Shown: piece after piece, positions 34,267-46,836 of the stretch | Numbering within the stretch: the stretch's first letter is position 1 | Layout: each line of letters begins with the position of its first letter | Assembly (NCBI GenBank): GCA_963765495.1 | Contig: CAVXWP010000008.1 | Location: 64,001-128,000 of the forward strand | Length of the DNA stretch: 64,000 bases | DNA from: Blastocatellia bacterium | GTDB taxonomy: Bacteria; Acidobacteriota; Blastocatellia; UBA7656 | Reading direction: 5' to 3' | Notes under the pieces: model-generated | What the model was told of the DNA's origin: nothing | The model's database searches: none | The model's input: the letters and a program-made list of their open reading frames with translations, nothing else | Program-made: the position numbers and the translations under genes

Positions 34267-34941
34267 ATGTCGAGAAGCAATTTGAAAACAGTGGTGACGG
34301 GGATAGAAGAAGGGGGGCGGATGTCCTGCGTAGACCGCCGCCAGCAGCTCATACGAGTAGCGATTAAAGTGTTCTCTCAAAAAGGGTTTAGCGGAGCGAC
34401 CACAAAGGAAATAGCCTCTGCGGCAGGCGTGAGCGAAGCTATCATCTTTCGCCATTTTCCCACAAAGGACGATCTTTACGCGGCGATTCTCGATCACAAG
34501 GCAAGCGAATCGAGCGTCGATGTCTGGCTAAAGGAGTTGAGCGAGTATGCCGAGCGCCGCGATGATGAGGGGCTCTTTCAGGTGCTGGCCGCAAGGATTG
34601 TGGAGCATCACCGCAAGGATGTGGATTTCGTGCGCCTGATGTTGTACTCGGCGCTTGAAGGACACGAGCTGGCAAGACAATTCAGAGAGAAACAATTTCT
34701 GCCCATTCACGACTTCCTCCGGGATTATATAGCCGCTCGGCAGAAAGAAGGCGCATTCCGCGACTGCAACCCGAGAATGGCCGTCCGCGCCTTTGTCGGC
34801 ATGCCGTTTTATCACTCTATTATGAACTGGTTGTTCGAGTTTAATGTTGTGGAGATCAGCGATAAAAAGGCCACAGAAGCATTCACCAACCTGATACTGA
34901 GCGGGCTTCGCGCCGAGGCCGCTTCCGCCGCCGAGGAGTAA
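34267..34941 (+). CDS. TetR/AcrR family transcriptional regulator
   Basis: A..VF..KGF..ATTKEIA..AGVSEA.IFRHF.TK HTH. Confidence 0.93.
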   Translation: MSRSNLKTVVTGIEEGGRMSCVDRRQQLIRVAIKVFSQKGFSGATTKEIASAAGVSEAIIFRHFPTKDDLYAAILDHKASESSVDVWLKELSEYAERRDDEGLFQVLAARIVEHHRKDVDFVRLMLYSALEGHELARQFREKQFLPIHDFLRDYIAARQKEGAFRDCNPRMAVRAFVGMPFYHSIMNWLFEFNVVEISDKKATEAFTNLILSGLRAEAASAAEE

Positions 34942-34950
34942 TACTTCACT

Positions 34951-36282
34951 ATGACATCACCATTTCGCATTAGGGGAAAATACATATTGGCATGTCTTTG
35001 CGTGGTGCTTGCCGGGGCGCTGTTTTTATCCGCCTGCGGACGATCAAAAGCGACCACGGAAAACAACGATTCAAATGCTTCGACGGCCGAAGCCGCAGAG
35101 CTTCACCCCGTTGAGGTAACGACATCCGAGGCTACTTCGGAAGAAGTCCCGGCCTTTATTCAGGCGACCGGCAGTTTTGACGCCGATGAGACATCGGATG
35201 TGGCCGCGCAAACAAGCGGGCAGGTAGCGCAAACGCCTATAGACGTGGGCGCATTCGTAAAAAAGGGCGCGGTTATTGCAGTGCTTGATGCCAGGGACGC
35301 CCGGTTGAGATTCCAGCAAGCGCTCGCCGCAGAGCGACAAAATGAGGCTGCGCTCAGACAGGCAGAGGCCAAAATAGGGCTTCTCGAAGGAGGGACGTTT
35401 TCCGCCTCGGAAGTGCCCGAAGTTCGAGCCGCCAGCCAGAATTACGAGTCGGCCAGAGCACAGGCGGAACTCGCCGAGACGAATGCCCGCCGCTACGAAA
35501 ATCTGGTTGAAACCGGCGATGTCTCAAGGATGATTTACGACCAGGCGAAGACTCAGGCCGAAACGGCTCGCGCTCAGGCCAATGCGGCCCGCCAGCAGTT
35601 GGAAGTGGTTATAAACGTCGCCAAGCAGAACAATCAGGCCATAGCGCAGGCTCAGGCAAATCTGGATGCCGCGCGTTCGGCAACCGCGCTTGCGAGAAAG
35701 ACCGTCGATGATACAAACATAAGAGCGCCGTTTTCCGGCTATGTCAGCGACCGCCCCGTAGCTCCGGGCGAGTATATAACGCCCGCCTCGAAAGTGGTGA
35801 CCCTGCTCAGGACCGACCCGATAAAGTTGAAGCTCCAACTGCCCGAAGCCGACGCGGGCCGGGCACATCCCGGAATGACCGTAGTCGCTACGGTGACTGC
35901 TTTTCCTGATCGGGAATTTACAGGTAAGGTGACGATAATAAATCCTTCGATTGACCCGGTTTCGCGCACCGTGACGGTAGAGGCATATTTTGACAATCCC
36001 GGTAATGCGCTCAGACCGAATATGTTCGCAAGCGCGCGCATACTGCTCCCGGAAGGCGAGCAGGGAATCTTCATACCGAAATCTGCGATCATCACCGACT
36101 CGACCACGGCATCATCGCGTGTCTATGTGATAGACGGTACGGTCGCCCGGTTGCGCGTAGTGCAGACCGGACCCGAGATGGAGAACCGCGTGCAAGTGTT
36201 ATCGGGAGTAACGACGGGTGAAAAGGTCGCCACAAGCAACCTCGACCAGCTTTTCGACGGCGCGCAGGTGGTGCCTAAATGA
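34951..36282 (+). CDS. RND efflux periplasmic adaptor (MFP), lipoprotein
   Basis: LSAC lipobox, lipoyl halves, coiled-coil hairpin, IRAPFSG and LRPNMFA. Confidence 0.93.
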   Translation: MTSPFRIRGKYILACLCVVLAGALFLSACGRSKATTENNDSNASTAEAAELHPVEVTTSEATSEEVPAFIQATGSFDADETSDVAAQTSGQVAQTPIDVGAFVKKGAVIAVLDARDARLRFQQALAAERQNEAALRQAEAKIGLLEGGTFSASEVPEVRAASQNYESARAQAELAETNARRYENLVETGDVSRMIYDQAKTQAETARAQANAARQQLEVVINVAKQNNQAIAQAQANLDAARSATALARKTVDDTNIRAPFSGYVSDRPVAPGEYITPASKVVTLLRTDPIKLKLQLPEADAGRAHPGMTVVATVTAFPDREFTGKVTIINPSIDPVSRTVTVEAYFDNPGNALRPNMFASARILLPEGEQGIFIPKSAIITDSTTASSRVYVIDGTVARLRVVQTGPEMENRVQVLSGVTTGEKVATSNLDQLFDGAQVVPK

Positions 36283-36352
36283 TGAACCCGCTCGGTTGTT
36301 TGCTGTCAGTTGCAACTGACAGCCTGGGACTGACAACGGACAGAGGACAATC

Positions 36353-39300
36353 ATGCAGAAGTTAGCTGAGATATGTGTTCGCCGCCCCGTTTTTGCTACG
36401 GTACTGATACTAGCTCTTACCGTGGTGGGCATCTTTTCTTTCAACTCGCTCGGCGTAGACCTGTTCCCAAAGATTGATCTTCCGACTGTAACCGTCACGG
36501 TGGTCAATCCGGGCGCTTCGCCCCAGGAGATTGAAACCGAAGTCACCGACAAGATCGAAGGCGCTATCAATACCGTCAGCGGGATTGACGAATTGCGCTC
36601 GACTTCGGTCGAAGGCGTATCGCAGGTATTTGTCACATTTATTCTGGAAAAGAACCCCGACGTGGCCACGCAAGAGATTCGCGATAAGGTGAATCTGATC
36701 GTCGGCGACCTGCCGGAAACCGCCGAAGACCCTATCATTCAAAAGCTCAACACCGATGCCACGCCCGTTCTTCAGATAGCCGTTTCAGCGCCCGGCTCGC
36801 TACGCGATGTCACCTATGTTGCAGATAACCAGATCAAGCAGCGAATCGAGAGCATAAACGGCGTAGGCGAGGTGCAGATAGTCGGTCGCCAGCAGCGCGA
36901 GATTCACGTCTTTGTCGATCCAGATAAACTGCGCGCCTATAACGTCACTGTAGCCGAGGTAGCAAACGCCGTCCGCGAGCAGAATATGGAGGTGCCGGGC
37001 GGTCGCGTCGATCAGGGCACGCGTGAACTGACGGTCCGCACTATGGGGAAAGTAATCGACCCCAAACGGTTCAACGACATAGTCGTCGCCGTTCGCGGGT
37101 CGTATCCGGTCAAGGTCAGCGACATCGGCCACGCCGAAGACGGAACCGAAGAGCAGAGAACGGCGGCCCTGCTCAACGGGCAGCCCGCCGTCACGCTGGT
37201 TGTCTCGAAGCAATCGGGGCAAAACACAGTGGCGGTGGCCGAGGCTGTAAAACAACGCCTCGCCGAAATCAAACCGACTCTGCCACCCGACTATCGCGTA
37301 GAGGTGGTTGGCGATCAATCAATATTTATCAAGGCGTCGGTTGATGCGATCAAGACACACCTTGTCGAAGGCGGATTGCTTGCCGCGCTCGTGGTCTTTA
37401 TCTTCCTGTGGAATTTCCGCTCTACGATCATCGCGGCGGTCGCCATTCCTACCTCGATCATCGCGACATTCGGTTTGATGGCGGCGATGGGTTACACGCT
37501 GAATAAGATCACAATGCTCGCGCTCACGCTGATGGTCGGTATAGTTATTGACGACGCGATAGTTGTGCTCGAAAACATCTATCGCTACATCGAAGAAAAA
37601 GGCATGGCTCCGTTTCAGGCAGCCATCGAAGGAACACGCGAAATCGGTCTCGCTGTAATGGCGACTACGCTTTCGCTGCTGGCCGTCTTTATCCCCGTAG
37701 GTTTTATGGGCGGGATTGTAGGCCGTTTCATGTCCTCATTCGGTTTGACATCCGCATTCGCAATCGCGGTATCGCTTCTGGTGTCGTTTACCTTGACCCC
37801 AATGCTTGCGGCAAGGCTCATAAAGCGGCGCGAGACGACGATGGCTATCGCGAGCGGCGAGGCTGATGATGAAGCCCTGTCCGAGCGGGAAGCCGGTCCT
37901 GTGAAGGCGGATGTGGAGTCAAAGGAATCGCGTTTCTACAGACCCATTGATCGCACCTACACGATGTTATTGCACTGGTCGCTCGATCACAGGTGGGCGA
38001 TAGTTGGATTGTGCGGCCTCGTGATTTTGAGCATCGTCCCGCTCTTCATGTTTGTAGGTAAGAACTTTCTACCCGTAGACGATCAGGCGCAGTTCGAGGT
38101 ATCGGTTCGCGCGCCGGAAGGCTCGTCGCTCGCCGCTACATCGAGCATCGTTGAGCGAATCGCCACGGAAATTCGCAAGTTCCCGGGCGTACTTGAAACC
38201 CTGACGACGATTGGAGGCGGGCAGCAGCAACAGGTAAACAGCGCCTCGGTTTACGTCAAGCTCACGCCGATCGAACAACGCCACGTGTCTCAGCAGGAAT
38301 TGATGACGCGCGCGCGCGCGCTGCTCAAGCAATACCCGCAGGAACTGAGAACAAGCGTGCAGGATGTGGCGGCGGTTTCGGGTGGAGGTCAGCGCAACGC
38401 CGACATTCAATATGTGGTGAGCGGCCCCGATCTGCAAAAACTCACGGAGTATTCAGCCGTGCTGCTTGAAAAGATGAAATCAATCCCCGATGTGGTTGAC
38501 GCCGATTCGTCACTGGTTTCGGGTAAGCCGGAATTGCGCATCGTAATCGACCGCGCGCGCGCCGGTGATCTGGGCGTGAAGGTAGCCGATATAGCTCAGG
38601 CGCTCAACACGCTCGTAGCCGGGCAAAAGGTCTCGACCTTCAATGAAGGCAAGGACCAGTATGATGTGGTCGTACGGTCTACGGGGCAGTACCGCGCCAG
38701 CGCCGAGGGGCTTCAAAGGATGATCGTCACGTCGAGCAAAGCGGGATGGGTCAGCCTCGATAATCTCGTCAAGATTGATCCCGGCACAGGCCCGTCGAGC
38801 ATTGATCGCCTGAACCGTCAGCGACAGGTTACGCTTTCGGCAAACGTCAAACCGGGCGGCTCGCAGGCGGCTGTCATCAGCAAGATGAATCAGTTTGTAA
38901 AAGAGATGAAGATTGATCCGGGCTATCAGACGGGAACGGCAGGACGCTCGAAAGAGCTTGCGAAATCGGGCTACTACTTCCTGCTCGCATTCGCGCTGTC
39001 GTTTATCTTCATGTATCTGGTGCTTGCAGCGCAATTCGAATCTTTCATACATCCGGTGACGATTCTGCTCACGCTGCCACTTGCCATCCCATTCGGCATA
39101 CTGTCGCTTTTGCTGACCGGTCAGACCGTGAATATATTTTCCGGCCTCGGACTGCTCTTGCTGTTTGGCGTGGTAAAGAAAAACGCGATCTTGCAGATAG
39201 ATCATACGAACGGATTGCGCGCGCTTGGCATGACGCGCCAGGATGCGATCATTCAGGCAAACCGCGACCGGCTTCGCCCGATACTGATGACAACCATCGC

Positions 39301-39622
39301 GCTCGTTGCAGGCATGATTCCGCTGGTCGTTTCAAGCGGCCCGGGGTCGGGCACGAACAGATCAATCGGCGTGCTCGTAGTCGGCGGCCAATCGCTTTGC
39401 CTGCTGCTCACGCTGCTTGCCGTCCCGGTCTTTTACTCGTTGTTTGAAGACCTGGGCGAGTTGCGGATGTGGGGCTACATAGCCGAGCGGTACAAGATAG
39501 TCGCGGCCTATGCGAGTCGCCGATTTGCGCAAGCCGGATCATTGGCCGCAGGCATCTTCTCTCGCAAAGCAGGAAAGGAGAGTTACAAAGACAGATATGT
39601 TGACCATACATCAGGCGATTAA
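36353..39622 (+). CDS. RND efflux permease (AcrB/AcrD/AcrF family)
   Basis: RRPVFA, VIDDAIVVLEN, VKKNAIL and RLRPILMTT motifs; 1089 aa. Confidence 0.96.
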   Translation: MQKLAEICVRRPVFATVLILALTVVGIFSFNSLGVDLFPKIDLPTVTVTVVNPGASPQEIETEVTDKIEGAINTVSGIDELRSTSVEGVSQVFVTFILEKNPDVATQEIRDKVNLIVGDLPETAEDPIIQKLNTDATPVLQIAVSAPGSLRDVTYVADNQIKQRIESINGVGEVQIVGRQQREIHVFVDPDKLRAYNVTVAEVANAVREQNMEVPGGRVDQGTRELTVRTMGKVIDPKRFNDIVVAVRGSYPVKVSDIGHAEDGTEEQRTAALLNGQPAVTLVVSKQSGQNTVAVAEAVKQRLAEIKPTLPPDYRVEVVGDQSIFIKASVDAIKTHLVEGGLLAALVVFIFLWNFRSTIIAAVAIPTSIIATFGLMAAMGYTLNKITMLALTLMVGIVIDDAIVVLENIYRYIEEKGMAPFQAAIEGTREIGLAVMATTLSLLAVFIPVGFMGGIVGRFMSSFGLTSAFAIAVSLLVSFTLTPMLAARLIKRRETTMAIASGEADDEALSEREAGPVKADVESKESRFYRPIDRTYTMLLHWSLDHRWAIVGLCGLVILSIVPLFMFVGKNFLPVDDQAQFEVSVRAPEGSSLAATSSIVERIATEIRKFPGVLETLTTIGGGQQQQVNSASVYVKLTPIEQRHVSQQELMTRARALLKQYPQELRTSVQDVAAVSGGGQRNADIQYVVSGPDLQKLTEYSAVLLEKMKSIPDVVDADSSLVSGKPELRIVIDRARAGDLGVKVADIAQALNTLVAGQKVSTFNEGKDQYDVVVRSTGQYRASAEGLQRMIVTSSKAGWVSLDNLVKIDPGTGPSSIDRLNRQRQVTLSANVKPGGSQAAVISKMNQFVKEMKIDPGYQTGTAGRSKELAKSGYYFLLAFALSFIFMYLVLAAQFESFIHPVTILLTLPLAIPFGILSLLLTGQTVNIFSGLGLLLLFGVVKKNAILQIDHTNGLRALGMTRQDAIIQANRDRLRPILMTTIALVAGMIPLVVSSGPGSGTNRSIGVLVVGGQSLCLLLTLLAVPVFYSLFEDLGELRMWGYIAERYKIVAAYASRRFAQAGSLAAGIFSRKAGKESYKDRYVDHTSGD

Positions 39623-41639
39623 AAAATTGTGGTCGGCCCGCAGCTCGCTTGCGCGACTCTTTGCGATGAGTCTCGTTGCGTCACTCGTAGCGGGAACGCT
39701 GCTGCCTTCAATGGTTGCGGCGCAATCCGGCCAGCAACAGCAACAACCGCAGCAACAGCAGACGCCTCCCACTGGGCAGCCGTCTGATCCTGCTCGGCAG
39801 AGCCCGCAGCCTGCGCCGCAGCCCGCGCCTACCCAGCAACAGACTCAACCGCAGCCGCAGCAGGGTCAGCAGGGTCAGCCATCCCAACAGGGGCAGCCGT
39901 CCGCGCCGGGCGGATTACAGCAGGTGCCCGCTACACCGGGGCAGGGCGTAGGCGATTCCGGCGTGATAATTCCGCCGCAAATGCCAAAGGAGCCGCCTCC
40001 CGTAGCGCCCGATTATCAGGCCCCGCTCCGGTCGCTACCCTCTGCCGAAAGAGTCGGCGTGGAACAAACCGAGCCTGCCTCGCTTACCTTGAGCGAGGCG
40101 ATAGCGCTTGCGCTTGCAAACAATAACGACATCAGCACCTCGCGCATAGATATAGAGATGGCCCGCTTTGACTTGAAAGCGGCTAAAGGCGCTTATGATC
40201 CGCAACTCTCTTCGGAAGCCTATTATGAAAAGCGCGAAACGCCGGTCGCCTCGTTTATCGGCGGCGGCCCAAACGGTAAGGTAACTACGTCCGATCTTAC
40301 CGGAAGCGTGAAACTGGCGGGATTGTCGCCCTGGTTTGGCGGGAATTATCAGGTTGATTACTCTTCGAGCCGCACGACTACGGATAACCTTTTCACTTCG
40401 CTCAATCCGCAATATCCGACCTCGCTGACCTTTACATATTCGCAGCCGCTGCTGCGCAATCTGACGATAGACGACAATCGCCGCCGCATCGAGATTGCCA
40501 AAAAGAACCTGACGCTTTCGGATTCCCAGTTTCGCCAGCGCGCAATCGAAACCATAACCCGCGTTCAGCAGGCTTACTGGGACCTGGCCTTCGCGCTTAG
40601 GAATTTGCAGGTTCAGATTGACGCGGTCAAACAGGCGCGCACTCAGGTAGAGAGCAATCGCCGACAGGTAGAGCAGGGAACCCTTGCGCCCATAGATATA
40701 GTCGCAGCCGAAACTCAGGTATCGACATTCGAGCAAAACGTCTACACCGCGCAGGAAGCCGTCACGCGAGCCGAAAATACGCTGAAGACGCTTATCCTGC
40801 CCACTCGCACCGCGCAACTCTGGAACAAGGCTATTCTGCCCGTAAGCCCTGTGACGCTTGAGCCGCCGGTTGTGCCGCTTGATGAAGCGGTCAATGCGGC
40901 GCTTGCAAACCGGCCTGAGATCGAGCAGGTTGAAACGAGCGCAGAGATCAATAAGATCAACACACGTTTCTTCAACAACCAGACAAAGCCGCAAATTGAT
41001 CTGGTAGGAGTCTTCAGCACGGTCGGGCTTGCGGGGACGATTGCCAATAACGGCGTCAATCCGCTATCAGCCGGAAACGTGGCGCTCACCGCGCGCGTCA
41101 ATGCGCTGTCTGAGTTGGCCGGGCTGCCGCCTCTGCCGCCCACTTCGACCGGGTCATTGCCTGATCTATTGATCGGAGGCCCTAGCCAATCATTCACAAA
41201 CCTTTTTGGATTCAATTATCCGGCAGCGCGCATAGGGCTTCGGTTCTCGTTTCCGGTGGGCAATCGCACGGCCGAAGCAAATCTGGGAAAATCGCTTGCC
41301 GAAGGGCGCCGCATCGGCAACCAGCGCGAGCAATTGAAACAGGTGATCGAATCAGAGGTGCGCAATGATTTACAGGCGGTGAAATCGGCTCAGGCAAGAC
41401 TCGCCGCCGCCGCGTCTGCTCGCTCTTCGGCGGAGCAGCAATACGAAAGCGAGCAGCGTAGATTTCAGGCCGGGCTTTCTACCGTGTTTCTCGTTCTTCA
41501 ACGGCAGACCGAATTGATAGCCGCTCGCGGAAGAGAGCTTCAGGCCCAGACGGATTTGAACAAGGCCATAGCCGAATTTTATCGCGCGACCGGCTCTACA
41601 TTGCAGATCAACAACGTCACGGTTCGCACCGATACAGAT

Positions 41640-41651
<12 letters not shown>
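39597..41651 (+). CDS. TolC family outer-membrane efflux protein with a Gln/Pro-rich N-terminal extension
   Basis: LTL.EAI..AL.NN, AYW.L, A...AL.NRPE and P.IDL motifs; start uncertain. Confidence 0.88.
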
Positions 41652-42851: not shown

Positions 42852-43739
42852 ATGAATAGAATAAGATTTGTGGCAGTAATCCTAACGGTGATTTCGCTCA
42901 TGGGGATGGGCGTGGCCGCTCAGGCAGCACAGCGAGGCTACCGCCCTAATGAAAGACAGTTCAGAAGCCTTGTCTCAAGAATCGAGACCGGCGCTGATCG
43001 TTTTCGCTCAAGCCTGGATGCGGCGCTCGACCGCAGCCCTATCGACGGCACGAGAGAGGAAGACAACATAAACCAGTTTGTCAAAGATTTCGAACAGGCA
43101 ACCAATCGTCTCAAGGATCGCTATAATGACAATCGAGCCGTCAACGACGATGCGGAAGAGGTCCTCAGACGCGGGGCGGTCATTGATAGTTTTATGCGTC
43201 GTCACAGGCTTGCGGGGCGGGCCGAAAGCGATTGGGCTTACTTGCGGAGGAACCTCGATAGTCTGGCGAGGCTCTACAGGATTTCGTGGAACTGGGATGA
43301 GCGATATAATCGCCGCAATCGAGATGACAATGGTTCGTATCGCGACAATGATCGGTCGAATGGTTCAAGTCGGCGCGCTTATTATGTAAGCGAAGGGCAG
43401 TTAAGGTCTTTGATAAGCCGCATAGAGAACGAGGCTGACCGTTTTCGCTCAAGCGTGGACTCCTCGCTCGACCGCAGTCGTATCAACGGTTCAAGACGAG
43501 AGGACAACATAAACCAGTTTGTCAAAGATTTCGAACAAGCGACCAACGATCTCAAGAACCACTTCAATGATGGTCGGTCAACAACCGGCGATGCCGAAGA
43601 AGTGCTTAGACGCGGAAAGGCTATTGATAGCTTTATGCGCCGCGCCCGGCTTTCGAGCCGAGCCGAAAATGACTGGCGCTCATTGCGCAGAGACCTCGAT
43701 ACCCTGGCCCGGTATTACAGGGTTTCCTGGCGCTGGTAA
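42852..43739 (+). CDS. Secreted protein with two tandem copies of an approximately 115-aa helical domain
   Basis: Signal peptide; duplicated RIE..ADRFRSS.D..LDRS.I.G..REDNINQFVKDFEQATN...W..LRR.LD.LAR.Y..SW.W. Confidence 0.85.
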   Translation: MNRIRFVAVILTVISLMGMGVAAQAAQRGYRPNERQFRSLVSRIETGADRFRSSLDAALDRSPIDGTREEDNINQFVKDFEQATNRLKDRYNDNRAVNDDAEEVLRRGAVIDSFMRRHRLAGRAESDWAYLRRNLDSLARLYRISWNWDERYNRRNRDDNGSYRDNDRSNGSSRRAYYVSEGQLRSLISRIENEADRFRSSVDSSLDRSRINGSRREDNINQFVKDFEQATNDLKNHFNDGRSTTGDAEEVLRRGKAIDSFMRRARLSSRAENDWRSLRRDLDTLARYYRVSWRW

Positions 43740-43958: not shown

Positions 43959-44630
43959 TTGGGAATGAAGCCTTTCAATATGATTAAATCGCCGGAAATT
44001 CCTTATCTGTTGATGGGGGTCTGCGCTTTGCTGATCTTCTGTTTATTGATTGCGACATCAGCCTGCCGGTCATCGAATGAGAGCGATCAGCCCGCCGATT
44101 TGATGGCAGTCAAATCGCCCGTTACGGGTGAGGTGAGGCGAATTCTTGTAGGTGAGGGATTGCCCGTAAACGAAGGCGCGGCAATCCTTGAAATCGCGGT
44201 CAAAGAAGTGACCGATAATACCGGGCAAGGCCAGGCGGGCGCGGAAGCGAGCGCCCGCTCGGCTCTTGCCGCTGCGCAAAAAGAGATAGCCGATGCCGAA
44301 TCCGACAGCGCGCGGGCAGCGGTCGAAGTCCAGCGAGTGCAATCGCTTGTGGCTACGGGGGCCGCGCCTCAGTCGCAGCTTGATGCGGCAAACGCTCAGT
44401 ACCAGCAGGCGCAGGAGCGTCTGCAACGAGTTCGAGAACGCGCTCAGAGCGCGCAGCGGGTACTGACGACTCGTGAGGGAAGCCCCGCAAATCAACCTCC
44501 CCCGGCTCAGGAAAAAATCATCGAGGTGCGCGTGCCCTCTTCGGGAGTATTGCGAGTGCTAAACGCTCGCGTAGGCCAGCGAGTCACCGCCGGACAGACC
44601 ATTGCCACGCTCTCTAAAAATAACCCTTAA
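43959..44630 (+). CDS. Short HlyD/biotin-lipoyl-like lipoprotein
   Basis: TSAC lipobox, SPVTG.V...LV.EG lipoyl half, coiled coil and second lipoyl half; start uncertain. Confidence 0.7.
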   Translation: MGMKPFNMIKSPEIPYLLMGVCALLIFCLLIATSACRSSNESDQPADLMAVKSPVTGEVRRILVGEGLPVNEGAAILEIAVKEVTDNTGQGQAGAEASARSALAAAQKEIADAESDSARAAVEVQRVQSLVATGAAPQSQLDAANAQYQQAQERLQRVRERAQSAQRVLTTREGSPANQPPPAQEKIIEVRVPSSGVLRVLNARVGQRVTAGQTIATLSKNNP

Positions 44631-44691: not shown

Positions 44692-45723
44692 ATGAAATAC
44701 AATCGTCTTGGAAATACCGGCCTGAAAGTTTCTGAACTATGCCTCGGCACCATGACCTTTGGCTCGAACTTTTACAACATAGGCACGCTGGGGCAAGAAG
44801 ACTCTACCCGCATGGTAGCCCGCGCTCGCGATGCGGGGATAAATTTCTTTGACACGGCGGATATGTATTCGTTCGGCGAGTCGGAGAAGATACTCGGGCA
44901 GGCCGTAAAGGATATTGGCGCGACGAGGGAATCGGTAGTCATCGCGACCAAGGTCCGCTCGCCTATGAGCGAAGCCGCGTGGAAAGGTACGGGCGACTTT
45001 AACAACGTCGGTCTTTCGCGTAAGCATATTTTCGAAGCGTGCGAGGCGAGTCTGAAACGGCTTGACATGGATTACATTGATCTTTATCAGGTGCACGGCT
45101 GGGATGTGGTTACGCCTGTAGAAGAGACCTTACGCGCGCTTGATGATCTTGTGCGGGCGGGCAAGGTGCGCTATCTGGGATGCTCTAACTGGACGGCGCG
45201 CCATCTGGCGAAGGGGCTTGGTCTGGCGGGTGCGCACGATTGGAGCGGGTTCGTCTCTTTGCAGGCATACTATTCGCTGGTGGGTCGTGACCTCGAGCAC
45301 GAGCTTCTCCCGCTTTGCGTAGAGGAGGGGCTTGGAGTGCTGCCGTGGTCGCCGCTTGCCGGGGGCTTTCTTTCGGGCAAATACCGCCGCGACAGTGAGC
45401 CGCCGGAAGGCTCGCGCAGGGTTGATTTCGATTTTCCGCCGATTGACCGCGAGCGCGGCTATGATGCAGTAGAGGCGCTCGATCAGATAGCGAAAGTGAA
45501 GGACGCATCCGTGGCTCAGGTTGCGCTTGCGTGGCTGCTCGCTCAGGAGGGAGTGACATCGGTCATCATCGGCGCGAGCAAGATGTCTCAACTCGAAGAC
45601 AACCTGAAGGCTGTGGATGTGGAATTGACCGATGAGGAAGTGGCGCGAATTTCTGCGACGACAGCGCCTGAAAAGCTCTACCCCGCGTGGATGGTCGAGC
45701 GCCAGAACGAGGGAAGAAGATAA
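44692..45723 (+). CDS. Aldo/keto reductase
   Basis: LGTMTFG, FFDTADMY, IATK, DYIDLYQVH, G.SN and PWSPLAGG motifs. Confidence 0.95.
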   Translation: MKYNRLGNTGLKVSELCLGTMTFGSNFYNIGTLGQEDSTRMVARARDAGINFFDTADMYSFGESEKILGQAVKDIGATRESVVIATKVRSPMSEAAWKGTGDFNNVGLSRKHIFEACEASLKRLDMDYIDLYQVHGWDVVTPVEETLRALDDLVRAGKVRYLGCSNWTARHLAKGLGLAGAHDWSGFVSLQAYYSLVGRDLEHELLPLCVEEGLGVLPWSPLAGGFLSGKYRRDSEPPEGSRRVDFDFPPIDRERGYDAVEALDQIAKVKDASVAQVALAWLLAQEGVTSVIIGASKMSQLEDNLKAVDVELTDEEVARISATTAPEKLYPAWMVERQNEGRR

Positions 45724-45728
45724 AAGGT

Positions 45729-46121
45729 ATGAAAGCAGAAAGCGGGACGGCTGATTCGATAGAAATCAGGCAGGCGATCAACATCGGGCCACGGGAACGA
45801 ATAAAGCGGCGCGTACTCGGCATAGTGTCTCTGATGGTCGGGGCCGGGCTGGCATTCGCGCTTGTGGCCTATCACGCGCCGGTGTTTGTGCGCCTGCTTG
45901 TTTTCTTCCCCTTGTGGATGGCCGGACTTGGGCTCTTTCAGGCGCGGGAAAAGACCTGAATCGCAATGGCGGCGCGTGGGACGCGCAATATGGACGCGGG
46001 CGAAGAGCCTGTTGAAGATGAGAAATTACTTGCGCGGCTCAGATTGCAGGCCCGTCGTATCCATCGGCGGGCTCTCATCGTAGCCGTTGTGCTGACGCTT
46101 TTGATCTTACTGATTCCCTGA
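45729..46121 (+). CDS. Small membrane protein with an in-frame UGA at codon 77; candidate selenoprotein (130 aa on readthrough)
   Basis: Frame continues ...FQAREKT-TGA(45957-45959)-IAMAARGTRNMD...LLILLIP*; SECIS-like hairpin right after the UGA. Confidence 0.65.
45960..45991 (+). other. Putative bacterial SECIS hairpin
   Basis: GCGCG(T)-GGG-(A)CGCGC at 45972-45986; G-containing apical loop about 17 nt 3' of the UGA. Confidence 0.55.
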
Positions 46122-46154
46122 TGTGGGTGTAATTGTATGGCAGGAGGTAGAAAA

Positions 46155-46601
46155 ATGTTTAGAGTATCGCGCCGAATACTGGTTCTTGTGATCTGTATAA
46201 TAATCGGCATCATAGCAATTGAGCGCCGCGATAAACCGGCTGTGGCGGCTGATTCACTGGCCGCGCAGGATATATCGAGCCTTGACCGGCGCATCAACTC
46301 TGTCGAGCAACGGATATACTCGATAGAATCGAGCATAAATCAACTTCGCCAGCAAATGATAGATGCCAGGCGTTCGTCATCGTCCCTGTCGTCGGATAAC
46401 CGCGACCCCGAAACAGAACGGCTGCGCCTGGAAGTCGATATGTTGCAGAGGCGTATCGTCGAGATCGAATGCGGACTTGTAAAACTCGACCAGCGGACCC
46501 TGCCTGAGAGCGCCCGTACCGCAAGCAAAGGCGCTGCGGCGGCAAAAGACCCTTGCCGCCAGCAGCCCAATACTCCCGTCCAGCTTTCCAGTAGGCAGTA
46601 A
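46155..46601 (+). CDS. Hypothetical exported coiled-coil protein with two Cys
   Basis: RBS AGGAGG, N-terminal hydrophobic stretch, coiled coil, ECG...DPC. Confidence 0.7.
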   Translation: MFRVSRRILVLVICIIIGIIAIERRDKPAVAADSLAAQDISSLDRRINSVEQRIYSIESSINQLRQQMIDARRSSSSLSSDNRDPETERLRLEVDMLQRRIVEIECGLVKLDQRTLPESARTASKGAAAAKDPCRQQPNTPVQLSSRQ

Positions 46602-46747
46602 GCAGTAGGCAGTAGGCAGTTATTTTGAAACTGTGATCAGATCCGCGTAAATCCGCCTGCATCCGCGTCATCCGTGGTCTATTTCTACTCTCCCAATTAT
46701 GCAGTGGCCTTTGGACAAATAACCGGCCCTCCTCAACTGCCTACTGC
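46589..46747. repeat. Family B element with a family C half-repeat nested inside
   Basis: CAGTAGG arm, internal gatccgcgtaaatccgcc...ggtctatttctac, ACTGCCT arm. Confidence 0.8.
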
Positions 46748-46836
46748 TCTCATTGTATCGCTAACACGCCTCTGATATATTGCTTCGGCTCGCAAGGCGA
46801 TCTTTATTTTCACCACATCGGCGGAGAGGTCGAGCG

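Follow-up and report, generated by a model that had tools for sequence, protein, structure and literature searches.

The window analysed here, a stretch of 64,000 nucleotides from a Blastocatellia bacterium (Acidobacteriota; contig CAVXWP010000008.1), carries on its forward strand a small gene, at 45729..46121, with an in-frame UGA at 45957..45959. From sequence comparison, we conclude with a probability of about 0.9 that this UGA is a selenocysteine (Sec) codon and that the gene codes for an inner-membrane selenoprotein of 130 residues, with Sec at position 77 (U77). An unannotated membrane selenoprotein of this size had been proposed in an earlier note on this DNA, and the tests of homology, of the hairpin and of the Sec machinery reported below all support it. 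The coding sequence (130 codons and a stop) is delimited by inspection of the frame, by full-length homologues and by an AlphaFold2 (AF2) model, and the Sec codon by its alignment to an invariant Cys and by codon counts across 84 loci. UGA77 would be decoded by the canonical bacterial mechanism: SelB with Sec-tRNA(Sec) would be recruited by a GC-rich hairpin located 12 nt past the UGA and having GG in its loop, and the Sec would occupy the place of the single invariant Cys of the family, after the second transmembrane (TM) helix and at the cytoplasmic face.

The ATG at 45729 lies 5 nt past the TAA (45721-45723) of an aldo/keto reductase gene. As described in the earlier note, the open reading frame (ORF) stops at the TGA at 45957-45959, just after the peptide ...GLGLFQAREKT, and the same frame continues for 53 further open codons, closing at the TGA at 46119-46121; these coordinates were verified in the sequence, as was the absence of Cys from the 130-residue translation. 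The chance of an open run of 53 codons is, by a rough estimate, about 8%, which is unremarkable alone. What takes the read-through beyond chance is not the length of the run but, decisively, the alignment of its downstream part with full-length homologues.

With the read-through sequence as query, 193 proteins of a 90%-identity collection matched at E<=0.01, nearly all 118-139 aa long and covering both sides of the TGA. Some have the same N-terminus as the window protein (for example, the 131-aa P0004, P0013 and P0024), the source names are those of Blastocatellia and Pyrinomonadaceae (Acidobacteriota), and the window's own truncated gene call, of 76 aa, is among the matches. Cys stands opposite U77 in 26/26 aligned homologues. 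Six-frame searches found the gene in 8 of 61 related genomes, the window's own included, with an in-frame TGA in four and TGC in the other four, and in each of the four TGA-bearing genomes the TGA falls exactly on the Cys column (tblastn). A scan of one genome per species added 80 loci, and the 88 loci fetched, less four duplicates, make 84 distinct loci, in which codon 77 is TGA in 30, TGC or TGT in 54 and nothing else in any; the ratio of Cys to Sec is biased towards Cys because one of the two scan patterns contained the Cys. Homologues aligning on both sides of a Cys or a TGA at position 77, the support for the proposal that mattered most, are thus found at 84/84 distinct loci. Moreover, a phylum-wide sample of 301 genomes, in four of which the gene occurs, yielded two additional TGA copies, one from another family of the same class and one from another class. 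TGA copies with as little as 48% identity to the window protein keep the frame and the motifs, and the two copies from the other family and the other class likewise retain the conserved frame past the TGA. In the wider family, represented by an alignment of 151 rows (the query and 150 representatives of 50%-identity clusters), Cys occupies column 77 in 141 rows, the U of the query being counted as C; seven rows have a gap there and two have G, the latter by a script alignment that was uninspected. The matches of seven representatives end at codon 77, six of them exactly in ...REKT.

A pseudogene with a nonsense mutation, or a TGA that is a sequencing or assembly error for TGC or TGT, would be a simple alternative, since one base separates TGA from either Cys codon. 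The sole read-level support found for the TGA is a low-depth DNA contig from a soil metagenome, which spans 45912-46203, TGA included, and is identical throughout; this contig possibly comes from the genome's own source sample and thus does not provide independent support. The same codon is TGA, however, in 30 distinct loci from different assemblies, in addition to the two copies of the phylum sample; these copies diverge in protein sequence by up to 52%, none of them was seen to carry a further disabling change, and the frame downstream of the TGA is under purifying selection in all. Since frame and motifs persist in TGA copies down to 48% identity, this alternative is in effect ruled out, and we consider it scarcely credible.

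Within the lineage, Cys and Sec appear from the sequences to have replaced each other repeatedly. The best tree of the 84 sequences needs 14 Sec/Cys changes and its well-supported branches force at least 2, the alignment being short and many forks unresolved. Two other positions differ between the forms: Arg86 is found in 25/30 Sec forms and 7/54 Cys forms, 47/54 Cys forms having a second Cys at position 86, and Met80 is found in 15/30 Sec forms but in none of the 54 Cys forms (codons 80 and 86 are 45966-45968 and 45984-45986 of the window). These codons may be constrained by the hairpin, in which CGC is a better pairing partner than UGC, or else Sec may make a resolving Cys unnecessary. Only three phylogenetically independent pairs are found on supported branches, and therefore no conclusion is drawn from correlations between Sec and these residues.

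The region 3' of the TGA behaves as coding sequence. In all 30 TGA copies, the frame stays open for 52-60 codons past the TGA and closes where it does in the Cys forms. The pairwise ratio of nonsynonymous to synonymous substitution rates (dN/dS; Nei-Gojobori, with row L052 dropped for a one-codon deletion) is 0.20 upstream of codon 77 in TGA and Cys copies alike; for the TGA and the Cys copies, respectively, it is 0.27 and 0.24 over codons 78-96, and 0.32 and 0.25 over codons 87-128. For codons 97-128, assumed to be gap-free, the value in TGA copies is 0.40. With dN/dS of 0.27-0.40, this region is under purifying selection in the TGA copies.

These observations bear on the possibility that the UGA is a true stop, the product being a two-helix protein of 76 residues and the 51-53 codons downstream either untranslated or a split gene that starts at ATG 45966. 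That ATG is in frame, three codons past the TGA; a Met is found there in 15/30 TGA copies and 0/54 Cys copies, and gene callers yield the 76-aa form (P0074 and six others). The remaining 15 TGA copies, however, have Leu at this position and are therefore without an in-frame start, and no ribosome-binding site was seen ahead of ATG 45966. The stop falls always exactly on the invariant Cys codon and never one codon off, and a split would delete the one invariant residue of the family. The stronger hairpin of the TGA copies, at the distance of a selenocysteine insertion sequence (SECIS), and the presence of the Sec machinery, both described below, also argue against termination, which we regard as quite unlikely.

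The SECIS-like hairpin supports the reading of UGA77 as a Sec codon. Its core, at 45972..45986 on the forward strand, consists of a 5' arm GCGCG (45972-45976), a loop TGGGA (45977-45981) and a 3' arm CGCGC (45982-45986); T45977 and A45981 could form a sixth pair, leaving a loop of GGG. Counted from the last base of the TGA, the stem is at 12 nt and the loop at 17-18 nt, so that the distance of about 17 nt given in the earlier note is that of the loop. A GC stem of 5-6 bp, 12 nt past the TGA and with GG in its loop, is retained at this constant distance in 30/30 TGA copies, and the five core pairs are formed in 148/150 cells of these copies. Pair 25-33 is formed in 30/30 TGA copies vs 31/53 Cys copies (broken in 22/53), and pair 24-34 is mostly G-U in the Cys copies. 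At the third positions of codons 84 and 85, where changes are synonymous, G is found in 27/30 and 30/30 TGA copies, respectively, whereas these positions are free in the Cys copies. In two TGA copies (L080 and L142), a TGC at codon 86 pairs with GCA and not GCG, an A-U pair replacing a G-C pair. The 27-nt core folds with -9.6 +/- 1.2 kcal/mol in TGA copies and -6.6 +/- 1.9 kcal/mol in Cys copies (Mann-Whitney p 5e-10, uncorrected for relatedness). The hairpin of the window has -9.3 kcal/mol, as compared with a mean of -3.1 kcal/mol for ordinary TGA stops over the same 27-nt window; of 1,408 TGA codons that end long ORFs on three contigs of the genome, only 3% are followed by a fold as stable as this.

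Several points weigh against the hairpin as evidence for Sec insertion. The Mann-Whitney p overstates the evidence, because the sequences are related and come from one bacterial family. Covariation in the stem falls short of statistical significance: changes on both sides occur in only two pairs, which was matched in 78/500 shuffles, the lack of significance being due to a stem that hardly varies. The conserved peptide A-A-R-G-x-R itself dictates some of the palindrome, a weaker hairpin persists in the Cys copies (78% of cells paired), and the element is small, with a stem of 5-6 bp and a loop of 3-5 nt.

The genome has the machinery to insert Sec, a point that the earlier note, confined to the window, had left to be verified. 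SelA (467 bits), SelB (374 bits; encoded on the same contig as the window) and SelD (386 bits) are all found above their curated cut-offs, together with a tRNA-Sec of anticodon tca, the sole UGA-reading tRNA among 49 (Aragorn). SelA is found in 61/61 relatives searched and, therefore, Cys and Sec forms alike live in Sec-competent organisms. The genome has a second selenoprotein gene, fdhA (formate dehydrogenase alpha; contig C10:124691-127717), with a single in-frame TGA at 125141 in the context ...ARI-U-HS...; a stem of 7 bp with a GGTCT loop lies beyond this TGA, at a spacing of 11 nt. Annotation would probably split fdhA as well. The gene in the window shares with canonical selenoprotein genes such as this fdhA the in-frame UGA at the Cys of homologues and decoding by selA/selB/selC/selD, and with fdhA itself a hairpin with a G-rich loop starting 11-12 nt after the UGA. 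The two hairpins differ in that the family in the window has a stem of 5-6 bp, as opposed to 7 bp, and a loop GGG or NGGNA, as opposed to GGTCT; moreover, unlike canonical selenoproteins, the window protein is a small protein with three membrane helices and has neither a cofactor domain nor a thioredoxin-like fold.

The UGA could also be read through without Sec, if a near-cognate or suppressor tRNA carrying Trp, Cys or Gly decoded it or if the genetic code were reassigned, and one public metagenome gene call, P0280 (341 aa), does give W at the codon. P0280, however, also turns the TGA stop of the adaptor-like gene upstream into W, thereby fusing an adaptor-like lipoprotein to a Sec form, a pattern expected from a code-4-type call (TGA=Trp) on a short contig. 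Reassignment is further contradicted by the 1,408 long ORFs on the three contigs that TGA terminates, this gene itself included, and suppression by the finding that tRNA-Sec alone among the tRNAs reads UGA. Besides P0280, neither Trp nor Gly occurs at the codon in any homologue, other than the two uninspected G rows of the wider family mentioned above. Thus, read-through of this kind seems very unlikely, and insertion of Sec at UGA77 is the reading we retain.

The best of five AF2 models has a mean predicted local distance difference test score (pLDDT) of 86.7, the remaining four scoring 61-69. It contains helices at 21-47, 52-74, 78-83 and 98-127, and a small beta hairpin. Helices 21-47 and 52-74 are predicted to span the membrane, the third TM segment being the end of the long helix 98-127, and U77 is placed directly after the second TM helix. 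Since the N-terminus (RERIKRR) and the stretch before helix 3 are basic, the positive-inside rule, together with the placement of U77 in the model, suggests that U77 is on the cytoplasmic face of the membrane. Neither Pfam nor NCBIfam has a match to the window protein at E<=1, and two Cys homologues gave no NCBIfam match at E<=1 besides two chance-level rows. Foldseek found nothing at E<=0.001 when the AF2 model was compared with the PDB, a profile search of PDB sequences gave nothing meaningful (best E 0.067, to a lipoprotein signal peptidase), the ESM Atlas returned unnamed clusters only, and a search of Rfam with 45700-46200 gave chance rows only. A homodimer prediction for a natural Cys homologue scored 0.00; it was run without controls and speaks neither for nor against a dimer.

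The family is large. Among 1.84 billion 50%-identity cluster representatives, a profile search found at least 1,702 at E<=0.001, a lower bound, and 482 at E<=1e-10. One of ten clusters looked up has members named Gemmatales and, therefore, the family is not confined to Acidobacteriota; a metagenome scan with a single Gemmatales protein gave no loci, and one with a five-sequence alignment gave 12. The family motifs are N-I-G-P-x-x-R-x-x-R ... Q-A-x-x-x-T-[C/U]-[VI]-x-L-A-x-x-G-x-x-N-x-D-x-G-E, and the residues strongly conserved in the 151 rows are N18, I19, G20, R27, G31, R55, F59, P61, Q71, T76, C77, A81, G84, D89, G91 and D97. C77 is the sole conserved Cys; the second Cys at position 86 is found in 30/151 rows. 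Many distant members, seen among representatives P0129-P0270, have a Cys 2-4 residues ahead of N18 of the N-I-G-P motif, which might act alongside the invariant Cys as a further ligand or as its redox partner. Some distant members have N-terminal extensions with weak zinc-ribbon-like matches. Among 8,000 candidates scored for fused or longer forms, P0280, an artefact, was the sole match; with only this number scored, the absence of fusions is weak evidence.

The earlier note likened the N-terminal half of the protein to YgaP/DUF2892-like membrane domains. PF11127, the YgaP-like transmembrane domain, is the former DUF2892. By eye, PF11127 and the family in the window share N/x-x-G-x-x-E/D-R-x-x-R-x-x-x-G at the N-terminus followed by two TM helices that a short P-x-W loop joins, then by L-x-L-[IF]-Q and, a few residues on, by a conserved Cys; true PF11127 proteins of relatives read M-T-V-E-R-Y-L-R-L-I-A-G ... 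S-P-Y-W-F ... L-N-L-I-Q-S-A-F-T-N-W-C-P. The pattern is thus visible, but every score lies below threshold. In addition to the lack of a Pfam match to the window protein, PF11127 is the only recurrent Pfam lead among distant members, found in 4/31 at 15-20 bits (E 6e-4 to 0.03), all below the gathering score of 25.3 bits. An hhalign comparison of the 151-row alignment with 16 PF11127 proteins of relatives gave a probability of 8.6% (E 0.0039) over residues 23-72, the match ending before the Cys. The context of the Cys is W-C-P in PF11127 and T-C-[VI] in the family in the window, which, unlike PF11127, also has an acidic loop, R-N-x-D-x-G-E-E-x-I-x-D, and a third TM helix. A separate, true PF11127 gene is found in the same genome. 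Because of the sub-threshold scores and the low hhalign probability, we leave the family outside PF11127; the two may have a distant origin in common.

As to the role of the protein, we tentatively suggest a thiolate or selenolate at the membrane surface, acting as a reactive or soft-metal-binding site and working with envelope transport systems, since in several lineages the neighbours are transporters (RND/TolC with a mini-adaptor; ABC-3 with ZIP or ArsP; an ABC exporter). All the genes of the window described here are on the forward strand. An efflux operon at 34267..41651 comprises genes for a TetR regulator (34267-34941), a periplasmic adaptor (34951-36282), an RND permease (36353-39622) and a TolC-like outer-membrane factor (39510-41651). 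It is followed, at 43959..44630, by the gene for a truncated periplasmic-adaptor-like lipoprotein, recognised by Pfam and NCBIfam matches and as a conserved upstream neighbour. This protein of 223 aa has a lipoyl/barrel-sandwich domain split by a coiled coil, lacks the beta-barrel and membrane-proximal domains, and has an invariant lipobox Cys36. Its gene is directly upstream of the family gene in 78-79/84 loci, as it is in two loci from a different family of the class; a TolC-like ORF is upstream in 72/84 and the C-terminus of an RND permease in 63/84. In the window, two unknown ORFs and the aldo/keto reductase gene (44692..45723; PF00248, E 2.4e-83) are inserted ahead of the selenoprotein gene, while in the closest TGA relative (G012) the family gene comes directly after the RND permease. 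Directly downstream, at 46137..46601, is a gene for a membrane-anchored coiled-coil protein, for which ATG 46155, after GGAGG, is the likelier start; a homologue is found at this position in 20-21/84 loci.

The reductase itself, taken in the earlier note as a possible partner in a membrane redox or sulfur/selenium-transfer module, was rejected as a conserved partner: it is directly upstream in 1/84 loci, that of the window, with similar genes elsewhere in three more loci.

Other lineages have other neighbours. A distant subfamily has, in three metagenome loci (L143, L149 and L153, possibly one lineage), the order Ser/Thr kinase, AccA, family gene, ABC-3 permease, and ArsP or ZIP permease; the ABC-3 permease, of the Zn/Mn type, abuts the family gene and has a 146-aa N-terminal extension. 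An ABC exporter is directly upstream in one locus. The common thread, membrane transport and partly that of metals, is circumstantial. Three points count against a transport-linked site: the neighbours vary between lineages, being a DoxX-like protein and a divergent TetR in the TGA copy of another class and a D-Ala-D-Ala carboxypeptidase in another lineage; the linkage to the efflux operon within one family could reflect no more than shared descent; and 25/30 Sec forms are without another Cys to resolve a selenenylsulfide. More doubtful still is the fuller proposal that the gene represents the first recognised Sec branch of a widespread single-Cys, three-helix family, a distant offshoot of the YgaP TM domain that serves as a metal- or chalcogen-handling transport subunit with its thiolate or selenolate. 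On this proposal, the repeated Cys/Sec switching in soil Pyrinomonadaceae would be a natural experiment on the payoff of selenium at the membrane surface.

AcrZ-type proteins are small accessory membrane proteins of RND efflux pumps. Similarly, the protein studied here is small and membrane-bound, and its gene lies at the end of an RND/TolC operon. The family differs in having three helices and a conserved Cys/Sec loop, and its members in other lineages adjoin other transporters or none.

The gene can be read as representing a new selenoprotein family, since it has no Pfam or NCBIfam match and is absent from the 119 families and subfamilies in Table 1 of a 2026 review (PMC13188914); this judgement is set against the models of that table. 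None of the families in the table is a small three-helix membrane protein, and no Pfam, TIGRFAM or NCBIfam model that defines them matches; a few, defined solely by CDD or PANTHER identifiers, were set apart by their names, none of which is that of a small membrane protein. We found no paper joining 'DUF2892' with 'selenocysteine', and among the papers listed for Pyrinomonadaceae, Blastocatellia or Acidobacteriota none mentions a selenoprotein, in a search that did not extend to the supplements of large-scale selenoproteome surveys. The membrane or metal families in the same table (mercuric transport PF02411, YeeE/YedE PF04143, SO_0444 Cu/Zn efflux NF033936 and the SaoP permease) are, as listed there, likewise integral to the membrane, with Sec in place of a Cys that is presumed to bind a soft metal or a sulfur compound or to let it pass, and like the family in the window they are known from sequence alone. 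They have no sequence relation to it and differ in size, topology and motif.

Public annotation cuts every Sec form at codon 77 or reads Trp there and, therefore, a whole selenoprotein family of abundant soil bacteria would be invisible in catalogues. The family would add a rare type, the small integral-membrane selenoprotein. Moreover, the 30 Sec and 54 Cys natural forms from one bacterial family, with 2-14 switches between them, are material on the advantage of Sec vs Cys and could be useful in teaching predictors of SECIS elements and selenoproteins to handle Acidobacteriota. The invariant Cys/Sec also marks a functional residue in an unstudied family of at least 1,702 clusters, which makes the family experimentally approachable.

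Two minor features of the window were also recorded. Between the TolC-like and adaptor-like genes, an ORF at 42852-43739 (forward strand) codes for 295 aa that begin like a signal peptide and include, in two internal copies, a module of about 110 residues (...RFRSSLD..LDRS.I.G..EDNINQFVKDFEQATN.LK...); no family matches it, and none of the 84 related loci contains this ORF. A tandem run of heptamers (CAGTAGG/CAGTAAG; 4.5 copies) at 46589-46620, just past the stop codon of the coiled-coil gene, is followed, about 120 nt beyond, by an inverted copy, CTGCCTACTGC, at 46739-46749. The heptamer stretch alone is matched by many unrelated soil and sediment metagenome contigs, with a summed depth far above that of the flanks, and is therefore apparently a widespread short repeat.

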